In this document: one piece after another, positions 13,767 to 26,833 of the stretch
Layout of the letters: every line of letters begins with the position of its first letter
Numbering within the stretch: the first letter of the stretch is position 1
Assembly (NCBI GenBank): GCA_036507075.1
Contig: DASXQR010000088.1
Coordinates: forward strand, 2,253 to 66,252
DNA length: 64,000 bases
Reading direction: 5' to 3'
DNA from: Acidobacteriota bacterium
Lineage (GTDB): Bacteria; Acidobacteriota; UBA6911; JACQSX01
The notes under the pieces: generated by a model
Seen by the model: the letters and a program-made list of their open reading frames with translations, nothing else
The model's database searches: none
What the model was told of the DNA's origin: nothing
Made by a program: the position numbers and the translations under genes

Positions 13767-13795
13767 TTGCACATTTATGTGCCGTAATGTACAAT
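13767..13795 (+). promoter_or_regulatory. Sigma70 promoter and operator of the phd-vapC operon
   Basis: TTGCAC-N17-TACAAT; palindrome GCACATTTATGTGC (13769-13782) and TGTACA core (13788-13793) overlap it. Confidence 0.75.
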
Positions 13796-13828
13796 ATCGG
13801 CGACTTCTCCACTTTGGAGGCCTATTAC

Positions 13829-14059
13829 ATGAAAACTGTCACTTTCACGGAATTTCGGAGGAACGCGTCGGAAGTCTTGGACCTGGTTGAAGAAGGCGAG
13901 ACGGTCCGCATCCTTCGCCACGGCAGGGCAATTGCCAAGATAGTTCCTGCCGATCCTCGCGAGGCCAAACCCGCATGGAAGCGCCGTGGCCTGCGTTTGA
14001 TCGCAGCGGGGGCCTCGCTCAGCAAGGCCGTGCTGGAGGAGAGGCGGTCCCCACGTTGA
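13829..14059 (+). CDS. Phd/YefM family antitoxin
   Basis: MKTVTFTEFRRNASEVLDLVEEGETVRILRHGRAIAKIVP; SD GGAGG. Confidence 0.92.
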   Translation: MKTVTFTEFRRNASEVLDLVEEGETVRILRHGRAIAKIVPADPREAKPAWKRRGLRLIAAGASLSKAVLEERRSPR

Positions 14060-14478
14060 ATGTCTTTCTCGACTCAACGGCGCTTGCCAAACGTTATGTC
14101 CAGGAGTCCGGAAGCGATCGCGTCGAAGAAATTTTGTCTTCGGCATCGTCTTTGGGCGTTTCTGTGATTTGTCTTTCGGAGGTTATTTCTGCGCTCTGCA
14201 GGCGTCGGCGGGAGAAAAAGCTGTCAAAACAGCAATACTTGAAGGCTAAGCAGGCCATCTTTGCGGACATTGAAGATACCAGCGTTATCAACCTCACCGA
14301 CCAGGTCATCGCGCGCGCCGTCGAACTCCTCGAGCGGTGGCCATTGCGGTCGTCCGATTCGCTCCACATAGCCTGCGCAGCAGAGTGGTCCGCGGACTTG
14401 TTGGTTTCCGCCGACGAAAAGCAGTGCGCAGCGGCGCGTAGTTACGGACTTCAAGTGGAACAGTTGCCCGTCGGCTAA
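14056..14478 (+). CDS. vapC: VapC-type PIN domain toxin
   Basis: FLDSTALAKRYVQESGS and LRSSDSLHIA motifs; TTG start overlaps the antitoxin stop (TTGA). Confidence 0.9.
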   Translation: MNVFLDSTALAKRYVQESGSDRVEEILSSASSLGVSVICLSEVISALCRRRREKKLSKQQYLKAKQAIFADIEDTSVINLTDQVIARAVELLERWPLRSSDSLHIACAAEWSADLLVSADEKQCAAARSYGLQVEQLPVG

Positions 14479-14810
14479 CGATGCATTGGGAGCGGAGAGA
14501 CATCATGAGGGCTGTCGCGGCAGTTTACATCGCGCCGCTGGACATCAGAGCCCGAGCGCAGCGAGGGACCCTCCAGAGTGACACTTGAGCGTCCTGTAGA
14601 TCGGGCTGCATTCCCGACTTACTCTTGAGGGTCGCTCACTTCGTTCGCGCTCTGAGATCGCGGAATCCAGTGGCACCCGACCGTGAAATGTCCAAACTCC
14701 TGGCGAGGCTCTGCCTCGCCGTCGACAACTTCACGCACGTTTTCGAGGCTTCGCGCGGCGACAGAATGTCGGGCGTTTTCCGACCATGAACAGTGTCTTC
14801 CCGAAATGTC

Positions 14811-15266
14811 TCATCTGGCCGCGGATCGTTGAAGCGGATTGATCGTTTCCAGATCGTCAAAGACCTTGAAATCATTCCGATCGCAAGTGATCAGCGCGGT
14901 TACACCGTTGTCCAGCAAGGTGGCGACAAGATAAGTATCCAGCAGACGCTTCCGGCCGAGTGAATAGCGCCTCAACATCTGCAACGCTCTGCTACCTGTT
15001 CCCGGTTGCGGGATCAACTGTCTCCAGTCAATGGTGTGCCAATACTCTTCGACTATCTCCGTACTTTCCTCCAGTGTCAGGGGAGGCTTGAACCGGCGTG
15101 AATCCGTCGTGATATGGATGAATTCCAGAAGCACCGGGAAGGTCACTGCGCAGGTGATTTCACCCGTCAAGACACGCCGCTCGAAAAACGACAGCACCCG
15201 CCTGTGTTCCGGCATGGACTGGATGGCCGAATAAATCAGGACGTTTGCGTCCACACCGCAGATCAA
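14811..15266 (-). CDS. vapC: VapC-type PIN domain toxin
   Basis: VDANVLIY, LLEF, LLDTYLVAT, LITCDRNDF. Confidence 0.88.
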   Translation of the reverse strand: MICGVDANVLIYSAIQSMPEHRRVLSFFERRVLTGEITCAVTFPVLLEFIHITTDSRRFKPPLTLEESTEIVEEYWHTIDWRQLIPQPGTGSRALQMLRRYSLGRKRLLDTYLVATLLDNGVTALITCDRNDFKVFDDLETINPLQRSAAR

Positions 15267-15490
15267 CCCAGCATCTCCTCCTGGATTTCCTCCTTCCTCC
15301 AGCGTCGTTTCAATTTCGGCTTAGCCGTTGTGGGCATACGTCGCAGGCGTGTCTGCGGGGCAATCCGGCTGCTGTGGTACCATTCCATCGCTTCCCGGAT
15401 CAGCTCGGCCACCGGCCGATCCTGCCGCCTGGCATATTCCTGAAACACGGCGTACGTCTTCTCCGACACATAAACAGATATAGGTCGCAT
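15263..15490 (-). CDS. Ribbon-helix-helix (CopG/VapB-like) antitoxin
   Basis: ISVYVS beta-strand, then RPVAELIREAM helices; 4-nt overlap with the PIN gene. Confidence 0.85.
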   Translation of the reverse strand: MRPISVYVSEKTYAVFQEYARRQDRPVAELIREAMEWYHSSRIAPQTRLRRMPTTAKPKLKRRWRKEEIQEEMLG

Positions 15491-15765: not shown

Positions 15766-17154
15766 ATGGCAGCCAAGAGCTCTCGAAAGATAATGTGGCT
15801 CGCACGGGAATTGATCGTTTTGGCGATGCTCGTGCTGGGGGGTGTCGCAGATGCGGCTTTTGGGTGCAGTTGCGTAGGCTATTCGGGACCGTGTGAGGCG
15901 TATGACCGGGCCGAGGTGGTGTTTGTCGGCCCAGTGCGGGAAATCAGCGAAACGACAACAGAGCTTGGCGCCGGCGCGGAACGCATGAAATTTCCGGCAA
16001 GATTGGTGCGTCTGGGTGTCGAAGAACGGTTTAAAGGTGTGGATACACCGGAATTGGTGGTGAGAACAGGTTTGGGAGGCGGCGACTGTGGTTTTCAATT
16101 CGAAAAGGGCGAGCGCTACCTGGTCTACGCGTCGCGAACGTCAGCAGGGCTCCAACTGGAGACAAACATATGCACTCGCACGCGTGCGGTCACCCGGGCC
16201 AAAGACGACCTGGATTACCTTAGAACTTTGCCCGCGTCGCGCCTTACAAGCCGGATTAGCGGGAGTGTCGAACTTTACGCCCACGACGCCGGCAAGCGCG
16301 GCTGGCATTTGGTGAGACCGCTGCCGGGAATAACTGTCGTTACTGACGGCGTTCGCGGTCACTACGAAACCGTTACCGACGCAGAAGGCTATTACAAGCT
16401 TGTCGGCATTCCCGCAGGCGAGTACCGGATAAAAGCCCGGCTTCCTGCGAAAATGACGACCAGGGACTCGGAAAGACAAGTCAAACTGTCAGAAAACGGG
16501 TGTGCCGAATTAAGCATTGCCGTTGAGTACGACGTAAAAATCAGTGGTCATGTCCACGATGATCAAGGGCGTCCGCTAAAAGAGATCCAGGTACAGATCG
16601 TAAATGTTGCACACCTCTCGGTCGATAAGGACCGCGCATACCCGATACTGATGAGCAAAACAGATTCAGGTGGGCATTATGAATTCGATCTGGTGCCGCC
16701 CGGCAGGTACGTCGTTGGTGTAAACATCGCGAGCGAGCCAAGTCTGGGCATTCCGTTTCCGAGGACCTTTGTTCCAGGCGTACCCGACAAGACGGGAGCC
16801 AGCGTGATCCGGGTTTCAGAAGGCCAGAAGGTCCATAATTTGGATCTTCAGTTGCCTCCACGCCTGCCAATCTACGACATCGACGGTGTTCTCTTGCGGT
16901 CCGACAGCAGCCCCGTTCCCAATGTTACGATTTACATAACCGCATCGGAGGAATCCAATTCTCCTCGCCTGGATTCGACTGACACGGACAGTCGCGGCCG
17001 CTTCATTCTCGGAGCCTTCAGAGGAGCCGAGTGCTGGATTCATGTGGAATCACGCGATGGGAGCGCACAGCCAGAAGTGATCTCCTTTCGTCCTGTCAAG
17101 CTCACCATGCGGGACAACATCCCAAATCTGGTCCTGATACTCGGAAAGAAGTGA
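15766..17154 (+). CDS. Secreted protein with TIMP/NTR-like N-domain and carboxypeptidase-regulatory-like (transthyretin-fold) repeats
   Basis: Signal peptide then CSC; GGGDCGFQFEKGERYLVYA; repeated TDxxGxY/F motifs. Confidence 0.8.
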   Translation: MAAKSSRKIMWLARELIVLAMLVLGGVADAAFGCSCVGYSGPCEAYDRAEVVFVGPVREISETTTELGAGAERMKFPARLVRLGVEERFKGVDTPELVVRTGLGGGDCGFQFEKGERYLVYASRTSAGLQLETNICTRTRAVTRAKDDLDYLRTLPASRLTSRISGSVELYAHDAGKRGWHLVRPLPGITVVTDGVRGHYETVTDAEGYYKLVGIPAGEYRIKARLPAKMTTRDSERQVKLSENGCAELSIAVEYDVKISGHVHDDQGRPLKEIQVQIVNVAHLSVDKDRAYPILMSKTDSGGHYEFDLVPPGRYVVGVNIASEPSLGIPFPRTFVPGVPDKTGASVIRVSEGQKVHNLDLQLPPRLPIYDIDGVLLRSDSSPVPNVTIYITASEESNSPRLDSTDTDSRGRFILGAFRGAECWIHVESRDGSAQPEVISFRPVKLTMRDNIPNLVLILGKK

Positions 17155-17273
17155 TGTGCGCTCCCATTCTCAAGGCTGCATCCGGCCGCTGATTTTACGC
17201 GGAGGTCACCGGATAGCAAGACTAGCCGCGGTTCTGCGCGAATTACACGGATTCTTCGTTCGAGCCGCGAATT

Positions 17274-17426
17274 CTATTCCTCGCTGTGTGTCTTCTTTTG
17301 CGTCGTACCTCCTGATTCCTGGGCGTCGATTCGATTTTTGTTTCGACGCGAGTTGAGATGCAACCCAATCAGGGAGGCGACGGAAAGCGCTATCAGTATA
17401 AGGACGACAAGGTTCTCACTATTCAT
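17274..17426 (-). CDS. Small single-pass membrane protein (50 aa)
   Basis: SD AGGAG, ATG at 17426; LVVLILIALSVASLIGLHL helix followed by a charged tail. Confidence 0.7.
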   Translation of the reverse strand: MNSENLVVLILIALSVASLIGLHLNSRRNKNRIDAQESGGTTQKKTHSEE

Positions 17427-17505
17427 AACATCATCTCCTAAAGCGACAGGCTGGCGCATGAACCACCAGCGTCTGACGGTGATTTCGGAATTTCAGAAGC
17501 AGTTT

Positions 17506-17883
17506 CTACCGGGCGAGAGGAGATGTGGGAGGAGGCCCGCGGGTGATCGGGCCGGACCTGAAAACGTCCTTCGGCGGACGAACCGTTAAATCCGGCGATA
17601 GTGTGACGGCGGAAATCGGGCAAATCGATACTCCAAACGGCAGAAGCTTCAGCCCATGCCCCCAATGCAAAGCGCGGCTCTTCAGGCCTGCTGTGAAGGA
17701 CAATCGCTGTTCGGGGCGGATCTTTGCGGCGGATGCGACGGAAGTTGCATCCAGAAGGGCGTGGAGAGCAGATGCTTCAGCCCCAAAAACGGCAGAGCGT
17801 GGACTCGGCGCGGCGGTCAAACCAGCCGATGCGCCCAGTGCGACAATCAGCAATAGTATCGCGGCCTTGTTCATTCCCTGCAT
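17506..17883 (-). CDS. Putative exported leader / ribosome-arrest peptide ending in RGPP
   Basis: Signal peptide MNKAAILLLIVALGASAGLTA; C-terminal ...GPITRGPPPTSPLAR*. Confidence 0.6.
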   Translation of the reverse strand: MQGMNKAAILLLIVALGASAGLTAAPSPRSAVFGAEASALHALLDATSVASAAKIRPEQRLSFTAGLKSRALHWGHGLKLLPFGVSICPISAVTLSPDLTVRPPKDVFRSGPITRGPPPTSPLAR

Positions 17884-18029
17884 GAATCCAGTTTATCAGG
17901 TCGGCGCCGATCTAAGGTAATTACAGAATGCAGTCAGCCCAGCCGCGCAGCGGCGCGAAGCGAAAGTCATCGTCTCCCCCTGCACCGTTTGTGGTTCGAT
18001 AACAGGCAGACAAGGCAGGCGCCCCATGC

Positions 18030-19364
18030 TCATGGAGGAACTTCGAGTTCAAGATTCCAGTCGTCGTTGGATTGCCAAAAGGGTTTGCTCGCGGGACGAT
18101 TCAACAAACTCCTGTATCGGCGGACAGTGTAATAAAGAGGAAGCGGCGTGTCGGGGTCGACGGTGAGCCGAAACGAAGATTCGCTTAGCTTCTCGTATCG
18201 CAGCTTCAACCGGTCGCCTCCGGGAGCCAGCGCTTGCGGCTCGTTAAGCCACGTGGTGAATTCAGGCTCGCCGGCGGGCAGTCTTCGCATTCGCCGGGCC
18301 ATCGCGATCGCCTTGACGGCCAAGGTGGTGAGTCGATGCCGCGTGGCGGTGTTGAGAGATTCACTTAAGACACGCCTCGAATCGGGCATGGGGATTCTGC
18401 GCCGCCATGCTGCGGAGCTTCCCGCAGTTCTCTTCGGAAGCGGGATCGAACCGGTGCGATTTTGAATCCAGCCCTCCATGCGATTCAGATAATCAATATG
18501 CGGTGTAACGTCAGGCGGGCCGAAGAACCAATCAAACAGCAAGCGTGGGGACAATGCCTCCGCCCTGGCGTCGGTTTCGGTCTGATCGAACCGGTGCATA
18601 AGTCTGTGCCGAAGATAGGAATAGAAAAGGAGTTCGCCATGCACGTAATCGGCTGCCCACTTGAAATAAGGATGCTGCTCACGCAGCCAGGAAGCTTGAG
18701 CATTCGCAGGCAATCGATTCTGAAGAGCCAGTTGGAAATAAATTTCATCACGGATGTTGTGCACTGACCTGGCCGCCTCGACATCAAACGATACGCGCGC
18801 CGCAAGATGAGCCTGGAAGAGACGATCTAAATTTGTGAGGTCCGGGCCGGGATCGGGACTGAGCATGGCGGAGTAGCCAAAATAATAGGCGCCCCATCTC
18901 GACACATGCAGGTTCGGTCCTCTCACCTGCGTGAGCGACTTCCCTGCTTCTTTGTCCCGGCGCGCCCAGCCACCGGTTCCGATCCGGAGAGATTTGTGTG
19001 CCAGCAGGATCCGGAGTTTTTTCCCTTGCCCTTCCAACTCTCTTAACAGTTCAATCAATCGGGCCGGAGGAGCTGCGGTTTGACCCATGGCCCACGCCTG
19101 CCAGGAGCGGCGCTGCGCCCACCATCTTGCAGATGGCGCGCGTGCCACCTCCGACTGCCAGGCCCAATACTCCTCCTGAACCGCTTCGTCAACCGGCCCT
19201 CCGGCAGCGAGCCACTCGAATGGATCTTCGGAAACGGGCGCTTGCGCTGCGCTGTTGTTTTTCTCCTCGGGCGCGGCGGCATTGCGAGACCGCAAGATAA
19301 TGACAAGAATTGAAAACGTCACTATTATCCCGGCGCCCGCGATCAGCAGCTTCTTCAAGACCAA
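18030..19364 (-). CDS. Hypothetical membrane-anchored protein
   Basis: 444-aa ORF with an N-terminal TM helix; no family recognised. Confidence 0.7.
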   Translation of the reverse strand: MVLKKLLIAGAGIIVTFSILVIILRSRNAAAPEEKNNSAAQAPVSEDPFEWLAAGGPVDEAVQEEYWAWQSEVARAPSARWWAQRRSWQAWAMGQTAAPPARLIELLRELEGQGKKLRILLAHKSLRIGTGGWARRDKEAGKSLTQVRGPNLHVSRWGAYYFGYSAMLSPDPGPDLTNLDRLFQAHLAARVSFDVEAARSVHNIRDEIYFQLALQNRLPANAQASWLREQHPYFKWAADYVHGELLFYSYLRHRLMHRFDQTETDARAEALSPRLLFDWFFGPPDVTPHIDYLNRMEGWIQNRTGSIPLPKRTAGSSAAWRRRIPMPDSRRVLSESLNTATRHRLTTLAVKAIAMARRMRRLPAGEPEFTTWLNEPQALAPGGDRLKLRYEKLSESSFRLTVDPDTPLPLYYTVRRYRSLLNRPASKPFWQSNDDWNLELEVPP

Positions 19365-19697
19365 TTCCCCCAGAAACGGCGGTCATGTATTGCACTTGGC
19401 GCCTTGATTCTACTTGCGTGAGTGTGCGGAGCGCACGCATCTTGCGCGCGACGTCGCTTCTTTCGCAGGTACTTTTGGAGGTGCCGCTCACGGCCTGATC
19501 GACCGTTTCTGCTACGCAGCATCCCACAACCGGACACTTGGGGCACAGGTACTCTTTCGTAAGTGGACCAGATTCCAATATTAATGGCACTCCTGCGGAG
19601 CGGTATGGTATTTGCTTGATGGACGATGCCGACTAAAGATTTTTGGACATGCGTGAACGCGGATTGGAGGGCGGATGAAGACGGAGTGGGAGAATCG

Positions 19698-26387: not shown

Positions 26388-26833
26388 GAAGTCGTAAACG
26401 TAATCGTGGACGTTGACGTGTCACGTGCTCGTAGACGTGGACGGTTTTGAAAAACTTTGCCAAAATAACAAGAAGTTGCCAACAGGTTACGCAGCGCGGC
26501 AGAGCCGCAACCAAACGCGGCATCAGTCATTAGTCATTAGTCATTAGTTATTAGTCATTAGTTAGAGAATCTTGCTAAGAAAACAAATTCCTTATAGAGC
26601 CGCGCAGCGGCGCAAGATTTGTGCCCGGGTGGAGCGAAGCGGAACCCGGGGCCACAATTCTGGCCGCCGCTGTGCGGCTCTATAAGGAATTTGTCTTTTT
26701 CTCCTGGTTGATTTCCTCTCTGTGTAACCTGTTGGCGATTTCTTGTTTTAGAAAGATTTTTGAACTAATGACCAATGACTAATGACCGATGACGTTTGGT
26801 TGTGGCTGTGCTGCACTGTGCCTCTGTGGTGAA
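26388..26833. repeat. Nested repeat cluster: hexamer array, two opposed GCCGCAACCAAA/heptamer elements and a central REP doublet
   Basis: (CGTnnn)n at ~26393-26445; (GTCATTA)n at ~26520-26563; ACAAATTCCTTATAGAGCCGC...GCGGCTCTATAAGGAATTTGT; inverted heptamer array at ~26764-26793. Confidence 0.85.

Follow-up and report, generated by a model that had tools for sequence, protein, structure and literature searches.

The stretch of DNA analyzed here, referred to as the window, comprises 64,000 nucleotides (nt) of an Acidobacteriota genome (GCA_036507075.1, contig DASXQR010000088.1) and carries on its minus strand two small open reading frames (ORFs) in tandem: ORF125, a candidate leader whose product may stall the ribosome at an Arg-Gly-Pro-Pro (RGPP) motif, and ORF50, which encodes a predicted small membrane protein (Table 1). 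The stop codon of ORF125 is separated by 79 nt from the ORF50 ATG at 17426, on the same strand. RGPP is found 7 residues from the C-terminal end of ORF125 and 96 residues after its hydrophobic segment, and both of its Pro codons are CCT, a codon that makes up 15% of the Pro codons in the long ORFs of the genome. Just past the motif, CATCTCCT is the exact 8-nt reverse complement of AGGAGATG, the segment that holds ORF50's Shine-Dalgarno (SD) sequence, and this SD/anti-SD pair is the only non-palindromic inverted repeat of at least 8 nt, with arms no more than 150 nt apart, in the region 17150-18050. An initial annotation of the window had proposed that a ribosome paused at RGPP covers the anti-SD and switches on the small gene. 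Its coordinates for the ORF, the RGPP codons, the anti-SD, the SD and the ATG at 17426 are all correct to the base, and the complementarity that it described between 17525-17518 and 17439-17432 is exact. The signal peptide that it assigned to ORF125 agrees with an N-terminus that passes a crude charge and hydrophobicity predicate for signal-peptide-like starts, and the 50-amino-acid (aa) single-transmembrane protein that it described does have one hydrophobic span, with AGGAG 8 nt ahead of its start.

Table 1. Features of the ORF125-ORF50 locus, in window coordinates
Feature	Position	Strand	Description
ORF125	17506-17883	minus	125 aa plus stop; starts MQGMNKAAILLLIVALGASAGL, ends ITRGPPPTSPLAR before the stop; candidate RGPP arrest leader
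Signal-peptide-like N-terminus	17809-17883	minus	ORF125 residues 1-25: basic residue, then hydrophobic stretch
RGPP codons CGC GGG CCT CCT	17541-17530	minus	proposed stall site
Putative P-site and A-site codons	17535-17533 (P), 17532-17530 (A)	minus	by analogy with the CruR toeprint (PMC12992588)
Anti-SD CATCTCCT / CAUCUCCU	17525-17518	minus	+10 to +17 from the first P-site nucleotide
Internal 7-bp hairpin	17450-17470	minus	in the loop closed by the SD/anti-SD helix; in minimum free energy and centroid structures
SD segment AGGAGATG / AGGAGAUG	17439-17432	minus	contains Shine-Dalgarno AGGAG, 8 nt before the ORF50 ATG
ORF50	17274-17426	minus	50 aa plus stop; ATG 17426; one hydrophobic span

By sequence comparison ORF50 is a real, conserved gene, because its family can be aligned, profiles of the family find matches in other genomes and the initiation stretch is kept in a relative. 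The family consists of proteins of 29-73 aa with about 5 N-terminal residues, a single hydrophobic span and a basic [KS][SG]RR-like cluster, its consensus start is MxLxxIIVxVL (alignment A5), and in a 17-sequence alignment (ORF50 and 16 members) the first 29 columns are free of gaps. ORF50 belongs to it by length, hydrophobic span, basic cluster and gap-free alignment. A four-sequence profile of the small protein gives matches in 19 of 137 genomes of the class (E ≤ 0.01) and the 17-sequence profile, run on a phylum-wide sample of 401 genomes, in 17 (E ≤ 0.001). ORF50 itself scores E values of 1.4e-25 and 2.9e-15 in these models, both of which include the window sequence, and an independent 53-aa paralog on contig C197 of the window genome (G000) matches it with a BLASTP E value of 2e-5. 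At the homologous locus of G003, a genome of the same family as the window genome, the initiation stretch AGGAGATGATNTTATGAAT is nearly identical. The codon score of ORF50 is 0.105, a value that 6.8% of out-of-frame shadow ORFs reach. No match to ORF50 was found in Pfam or NCBIfam, and the Protein Atlas gave unnamed clusters only, with scores below 0.9. A DNA homology between the window leader and the region upstream of the G003 gene was also considered and rejected, the translation-initiation stretch alone aligning convincingly; a CATCTCC 7-mer located in G003 about 135 nt upstream of the SD does not align with the window anti-SD.

A key argument for the leader comes from the loci of this family, of which 30 were examined, the window and its C197 paralog being part of the set of leader loci. 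Four matches with E values of 0.002-0.008 (G056, G131, G103, and G107; partial or inside longer frames) and four with E values of about 4e-4 (G051, G247, G402, and G287; partial or inside longer proteins, with no R[AG]PP leader upstream) are excluded from the 30, and no claim is based on the unpublished genome G015. Upstream ORFs were counted if they lie on the same strand, are at least 50 aa long and have their end in the interval from 260 nt upstream to 10 nt downstream of the small-gene start, which gave 42 ORFs. At 14 of the 30 loci such an ORF carries R[AG]PP no more than 15 residues from its C-terminus and ends 29-224 nt before the small gene. These loci span six families (f1, f6, f8, f27, f38, and f56). 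Among the C-terminal tetrapeptides of the 42 upstream ORFs, RAPP is the commonest (11) and RGPP is among the commonest (3), while the control tails AAPP, AGPP, KAPP, KGPP, SAPP, PAPP, RAPA and RAPS each occur zero times. The leader loci of f38 are not all independent: four of the five (G231, G253, G209, and G152) have a near-identical leader tail, from which G169b differs. A signal-peptide-like start is present in 13 of the 14 motif-bearing ORFs, compared to 3 of the 28 other upstream ORFs, and these 13 leaders are 108-136 aa long with a spacer of 84-101 residues between hydrophobic segment and motif. The initial annotation had made its proposal depend on conservation of RGPP and of the anti-SD at homologous loci. 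The motif is kept near the C-terminus, as R[AG]PP, at these 14 loci; the anti-SD follows only in part, with a perfect 6-8-nt SD complement near the motif at six of the 14 and 4-5 nt at the other eight.

In an alignment of seven leaders the invariant columns are M1, two Leu and the R-x-P-P residues only; R, P and P are the sole invariant columns at the C-terminal end, and no Cys or His column is conserved. The leaders are thus positional counterparts, and sequence homology between them appears at best weak. An architecture and a motif that are kept while the body is free to drift are the signature described for arrest peptides.

The same combination of features recurs elsewhere in the window genome. 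A scan of 30530 ORFs of at least 60 aa found 28 ORFs of 60-150 aa with R[AG]PP no more than 15 residues from the C-terminus. Twenty-one of them overlap long ORFs, and one of these has a signal-peptide-like start; the other seven lie in gaps between long ORFs, and five of these, ORF125 included, have such a start. The base rate of signal-peptide-like starts is 175 of 5753 among intergenic ORFs and 210 of 17378 among shadow ORFs. In the tails of the 175 intergenic ORFs with such starts, RAPP (4) is the commonest tetrapeptide and RGPP occurs once, compared to about 0.08 expected from the shadow rate (8/17378); AAPP, AGPP, KAPP and 15 other control motifs are not represented, and GPPP and RAPA occur once each. 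For ORF125 this census is suggestive, not decisive. The four RAPP leaders (L045-L048) are located at C10:45766-46119(+), C146:62723-63046(+), C143:10724-11128(-) and C197:3435-3824(-). An HRCHxC segment is common to two of them, which are followed by a TonB-receptor Plug gene and a ZnuA operon. The leader on C197 forms a cassette of the type discussed here, consisting of the RAPP leader, the 53-aa membrane protein mentioned above and a Kef-type antiporter. This leader is 129 aa long, has RAPP 7 residues from its end and shows a weak but collinear match to ORF125 (BLASTP E = 0.017, 31% identity over 80 residues, 11-88 against 12-89). By eye, another of the RAPP leaders precedes a small, acyl-carrier-protein-like ORF followed by a radical-SAM/SPASM gene.

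The predicted folding of the RNA supports the pairing proposed for the window. In the minus-strand RNA of 17420-17545, whose folding the initial annotation had put forward as a check, the 8-bp SD/anti-SD helix is present in both the minimum free energy and the centroid structures, with pair probabilities of 0.89-0.98 (P about 0.97). Genome-wide, an exact 8-nt complement that covers AGGAG and is located 20-160 nt upstream occurs at 12 of 1118 AGGAG-N5-10-ATG sites (1.1%), and none of 51 other 30-nt upstream windows contains an 8-nt SD complement. The full configuration, a C-terminal R[AG]PP with an adjacent 8-nt complement of a downstream SD-like start, is found once in the genome, at this locus. 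Perfect complementarity between the SD zone and the arrest zone reaches 8 nt in the window, 7 nt in G100 and 6 nt in C197, G253, G209 and G141, and in G100 and G109 the CCU Pro codons serve as the 7-8-nt anti-SD. Judging from ribosome footprints, a stalled ribosome encloses most of the nucleotides +10 to +17, counted from the P site, in its mRNA channel. A ribosome at RGPP was modeled by excluding positions -12 to +15 relative to the P site from pairing, which takes mean SD pairing in the window down from 0.88 to 0.67; with the ribosome 30 nt farther upstream the value is 0.87. Corresponding drops are obtained for G100 (0.72 to 0.55) and G109 (0.78 to 0.49).

The mechanism that we propose would run as follows. 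ORF125 would be translated as a Sec-targeted leader of the RAPP/RGPP arrest class, and its signal peptide would leave the ribosome about 90 residues before the ribosome arrives at Arg-Gly-Pro-Pro, where peptide-bond formation would stall, the P site being occupied by the first Pro codon and the A site by the second. In the free mRNA, CAUCUCCU (+10 to +17) would be base-paired with AGGAGAUG, masking the site at which ribosomes bind for ORF50, while the stalled ribosome would keep most of the 8-nt anti-SD in its mRNA channel, leaving the SD exposed and ORF50 translated. The pull of export on the nascent chain would end the stall and the helix would re-form, and the output of ORF50 would go up when export is slow. 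The sequence features, the conservation of the cassette and the predicted SD/anti-SD pairing are established directly; from them we infer the translation of ORF125, the stall, the release by export, the direction of regulation and the role of ORF50. The locus is probably a real arrest leader of the RAPP/RGPP type, judging from its sequence and that of its counterparts, and we favor, with some confidence, the fuller reading in which ORF125 is a genuine leader of the RGPP arrest type and acts on ORF50 through masking of the SD.

The genes that follow the small gene at other loci are of particular interest for its possible role. Na+/H+ antiporters or other cation-coupled transporters follow it at no fewer than nine other family loci: Na_H_Exchanger proteins on C197 (with TrkA domains) and in G114, G130 and G129, NhaA on C83 and in G183, a sodium:neurotransmitter symporter in G100, an H+-PPase fragment plus a Na:sulfate-type symporter in G121 and MatE in G135. 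In G003 a two-piece remnant of the Kef-type protein follows. At other family loci unrelated or unknown genes are found. The C83 case is a third paralog in the window genome (C83:80113-80220, L068), which has a GTG start and no RxPP leader and is located directly upstream of an NhaA-type antiporter. We also noticed that at three loci (L050, L052, and L054, in G022, G130, and G129) about 45 conserved in-frame codons (SFADC...SVII.E..) without a stop lie ahead of the small-protein gene; these may extend the N-terminus of the protein or, in place of an RxPP leader, form a conserved 5' element.

These features can be compared with those described for known arrest leaders. In PMC10987492 (Fujiwara et al. 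2024) four features define a candidate arrest peptide: it is encoded by a small upstream ORF (uORF) of unknown function, has a signal at its N-terminus, keeps a conserved motif at its C-terminus and separates the two by more than 30 residues; R-G-P-P is among the arrest motifs listed, and in the secDF2 example the stalled ribosome opens an SD-masking stem-loop. PMC12992588 (Fujiwara et al., EMBO J 2025) reports that in 10 major bacterial groups no tetrapeptide is avoided more strongly than RGPP, that RAPP/RGPP are concentrated close to the C-termini of small secretory proteins, and that translation arrest was seen in 7 of 7 Streptomyces lividans proteins tested with a C-terminal RAPP/RGPP. At the sequence level ORF125 falls into the RAPP/RGPP class: it is a small same-strand uORF, its product has a signal-peptide-like N-terminus and the motif near its C-terminus, and more than 30 residues lie between the two; like the uORFs of PMC12992588 it is shorter than 300 aa and precedes a same-strand gene outside the Sec machinery. 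In comparison with the ApdA/ApdP and RQH family (Sakiyama et al. 2021, PMC7897499; PMC10987492), all four of the PMC10987492 characteristics are found here except for the identity of the target, the downstream gene being unlike secA, secDF or yidC, and no sequence similarity of ORF125 to ApdA/ApdP-type families was detected in Pfam/NCBIfam, word or phmmer searches. Under the strict definition of a Sec/YidC monitoring substrate, which calls for SecA, SecDF or YidC downstream, the pair with ORF50 falls outside. The initial annotation was right that the target differs from SecA, SecDF and YidC, since ORF50 matches no Pfam or NCBIfam family and other loci have antiporters, symporters or unrelated genes downstream, but this is not new in itself, as PMC12992588 reports RAPP/RGPP leaders upstream of diverse genes. 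SecM-secA shares the logic of a signal peptide, C-terminal arrest, a stem-loop hiding the SD and release by export (PMC10987492), which is predicted for the present locus; unlike in SecM, the arrest sequence FxxxxWIxxxxGIRAGP (quoted in PMC10987492) is absent and the target is not SecA.

A further known system is CruR of Bordetella pertussis, a RAPP leader for a TonB-dependent receptor that responds to copper and arrests with its two Pro codons in the P and A sites, as determined by toeprinting (PMC12992588). RAPP leaders upstream of TonB-receptor-type genes are reported as a class in that paper, and the two HRCHxC leaders of the window genome, with their TonB-receptor Plug gene and ZnuA operon, resemble it, as does ORF125 as a RAPP-type leader with a target outside the Sec machinery. 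Unlike CruR, the seven aligned leaders have no invariant Cys or His column and the target is a small membrane protein rather than a receptor. Source-data file 6 of PMC12992588 lists "cation:proton antiporter" as enriched downstream of RAPP uORFs (75 RAPP vs 81 AAPP, 3.6-fold), while its main text has no occurrence of antiporters or small membrane proteins. Because downstream genes annotated as unknown were dropped from that analysis, a tiny hypothetical membrane-protein target would not appear in it. In its Amycolatopsis example the leader abuts the antiporter, leaving by coordinates no room for a small ORF; the cassette described here, in contrast, has a small membrane-protein gene between the leader and the antiporter, where one is present. 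As far as our searches show, a cassette with a dedicated small membrane protein has not been described in the literature covered, supplement file 8 of PMC12992588 lying outside that search.

Several results weigh against our reading of the locus. The R[AG]PP leader is missing at 16 of the 30 family loci, although at two of these the available upstream sequence is too short for a judgment and another two have RSPP or RPPP at the same place. By sequence comparison the small protein is the constant element and the leader an add-on at about half of the loci, since some of the antiporter-linked loci (G130, G129, C83, and G003) have no RxPP leader. While the SD/anti-SD helix appears as expected, the overall stability of the 126-nt fold is ordinary (-33.4 kcal/mol, z = -0.65), with 47 of 200 shuffled sequences folding as well. 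A perfect complement of at least 6 nt between SD zone and arrest zone is limited to six of the 14 leader loci, and the 4-5-nt complements of the other eight are no better than those of other windows. The claim that a paused ribosome uncovers the SD is partly borne out by the modeling: pairing falls in the window, but only partially, and opening is obtained in three of the seven loci modeled, SD pairing being left unchanged in G114, G121, G028 and C197. The switch is thus plausible in the window and in some relatives, on the evidence of the model, but its support in silico is partial, and it is not universal to the cassette.

These observations on the coupling bear most directly on an alternative in which ORF125 is a real R[AG]PP leader and either the coupling or the sensed signal is different, for example, mRNA stabilization, Rho protection, a more complex alternative fold or a stall tuned, instead of by export as such, by ions or small molecules in the way proposed for CruR and copper. 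The uneven complement across leader loci and the partial or missing unmasking in the model would be expected in that case, and on C197 the SD lies within a local hairpin about 100 nt from the motif. A RAPP leader that responds to copper exists in CruR (PMC12992588), and ion transporters are found downstream at many family loci. In the window, however, the anti-SD is positioned exactly where an RGPP-stalled ribosome would hold it and pairs with high probability, G100 and G109 use the Pro codons themselves as anti-SD, and the invariant residues of the seven leaders include no Cys or His. We therefore regard a different coupling or signal as rather unlikely for this locus, while giving it more weight than the other alternatives.

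A more radical objection is that ORF125 is a chance frame in a non-coding stretch, with ORF50 being real and having signals of its own and the 8-nt complement arising by chance or forming a constitutive SD-masking hairpin. Taken alone, ORF125 does look like a chance ORF. Its codon score of 0.002 per codon is non-coding-like: 1.5% of length-matched segments of real genes score as low, 45% of shadow ORFs reach this value, and an antisense ORF at 17525-17920 has the same score. Its GC content by codon position is flat (.63/.58/.61, compared to.61/.45/.67 in long genes), and no SD was found upstream of its ATG at 17883. No Pfam or NCBIfam family was found for it. A six-frame search of 60 relatives gave no match better than E = 0.003, and the best-ranked matches mostly contain internal stops; a word search of 5.8 billion proteins returned ORF125 alone; and a phmmer search of 1.84 billion representatives gave, beyond ORF125 itself, low-identity multi-stretch matches in proteins of 1598-4832 aa, which we read as compositional. 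No relatives were confirmed among genome contigs. At the DNA level, a search with 17155-18029 against the 60 relatives gave short matches with E values of 8e-4 or weaker and no homologous locus, an Rfam scan of 16900-18300 at E ≤ 1 gave no match, and a promoter and terminator scan of 17000-18200 gave a weak promoter-like site 3' of ORF50 and a plus-strand terminator-like site, both at the level of shuffled sequence. The single RGPP among the 175 signal-peptide-like intergenic ORFs is not decisive by itself, and one fully overlapped shadow ORF also joins a signal-peptide-like start and RGPP by chance.

Strain variation points in the same direction. A 3.7-kb contig of strain X2 from a soil-metagenome run has 14 differences from the window, all within 17479-17795, and none in 17796-19500. 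Ten of these sites are inside ORF125, seven of them non-synonymous and three synonymous, which equals the 70% non-synonymous changes expected of random change. X2 keeps the leader frame from 17449 up, with RGPP and the anti-SD unchanged, which carries little weight at this density of differences, and its contig ends at 17449, short of the SD and ORF50. The sharp edge of the X2 divergence inside ORF125 has the appearance of a boundary left by recombination or assembly, and not of locally different constraint. X5 covers 17112-17339 and shows no differences from the window.

Our own first reading of ORF125, as a spurious frame in a long intergenic gap, was based on such results and was dropped after the census of the window genome and the comparison of paralogous and family cassettes. 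The homology, codon and substitution tests failed on ORF125 because the bodies of arrest leaders drift while architecture and motif stay, and it was the comparison anchored on the downstream gene that reversed the reading of ORF125 from a spurious ORF to a probable leader. The codon-score test in particular discriminates poorly: codon scores of -0.046 to 0.162 are found for the genome's four further R[AG]PP leaders, and low coding potential is thus normal for the class. A chance origin would require the coincidence of length, signal-like start, an 84-101-residue spacer and a C-terminal motif ahead of ORF50 homologs in six families, as well as the same layout at the genome's own C197 paralog. 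On balance we consider it improbable, the arrest leader accounting for the shared layout.

No same-strand gene follows ORF50 in the window, the next gene being convergent, which is a further point against the preferred reading. Two toxin-antitoxin pairs at 13787-15490 suggest a variable neighborhood; both have a PIN toxin, which is joined by a PhdYeFM antitoxin in the plus-strand pair and by a ribbon-helix-helix antitoxin in the minus-strand pair. Upstream of ORF125 lies ORF444 (18030-19364, minus strand), a 444-aa protein without a Pfam family, which has no X2 differences over its whole length. It has a 38% identical paralog at G000 C152:120043-121290 and a 32% match inside a 1385-aa frame of G011; the search gave no hit in the 59 remaining relatives, and no relatives were confirmed among metagenome contigs. 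The idea that the window holds a decaying duplicate of the cassette, now drifting after the loss of its former transporter gene, draws on the missing downstream gene (transporters follow at no fewer than nine other family loci), on the toxin-antitoxin pairs and repeat fragments nearby and on the neutral-looking substitutions in ORF125, but it is very hard to reconcile with a leader frame, RGPP, anti-SD, SD and ORF50 that are all intact in the window, with the leader frame, motif and anti-SD kept in X2 and the unchanged segment in X5, with the coding-like codon score of ORF50, with other family loci that lack a downstream transporter too and with leader bodies that are unconstrained everywhere.

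Some further observations were made on the region around the start of ORF125. A 41-nt block at 17870-17910 (-27 to +14 of the ORF125 start) is 97.6% identical to G000 C54:351-391, where, by reading, just a 21-codon ORF follows, upstream of a gene that by eye is amidohydrolase-like. The block contains TGATAAACT, which ends 6 nt before the ORF125 ATG and reads like an extended -10 element, which would be consistent with a leaderless transcript. By eye, a TAnnnT hexamer 8-10 nt before the ATG, with no SD, is also seen at three of the genome's four further RAPP leaders. A dispersed repeat with a 15-16-nt core, CGCCGCTGCGCGGCT, is located at 17941-17956 and has 18 exact copies in the genome. Its copies often form inverted pairs 60-210 nt apart with conserved flanks; upstream of ORF125 there is just a partial copy, and a fuller one is found near window position 26598 (C88:28850).

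The first link of RAPP/RGPP arrest peptides was to the secretion machinery, and in 2025 it was broadened to metal uptake, redox folding and sigma factors. What is new here is a conserved cassette that has, as its immediate target, a tiny unannotated membrane protein, the kind of gene that annotation-based surveys drop, and that precedes Na+/H+ antiporters in many genomes. The case also carries a caution, as codon usage, homology and substitution counts of the dN/dS type (non-synonymous against synonymous changes) at one locus all pointed to a spurious ORF, and only the comparison anchored on the downstream gene reversed this reading.

Sec export depends on membrane energization, and the duration of the stall could therefore report proton or sodium motive force. 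This leads to a broader picture that we offer as a speculation, doubtful in its full extent: a three-tier cassette found across the phylum Acidobacteriota, in which a secreted RAPP/RGPP leader would gate a dedicated single-pass membrane protein of 29-73 aa acting as a partner or gatekeeper of Na+/H+ antiporters and cation-coupled transporters. The cassette would then be a translational sensor of membrane energetics and ion stress, and the window would hold sensor and small effector as a stand-alone copy. Should the stall be real, the locus offers a concrete system, open to cloning, in which the function of a 50-residue membrane protein can be studied, and export-coupled stalling as a sensor of membrane energization or ion stress becomes testable. 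It would also mean that a leader of this kind is recognizable by its architecture of signal peptide, fixed spacer and RxPP, in spite of noise-like sequence and codon usage.

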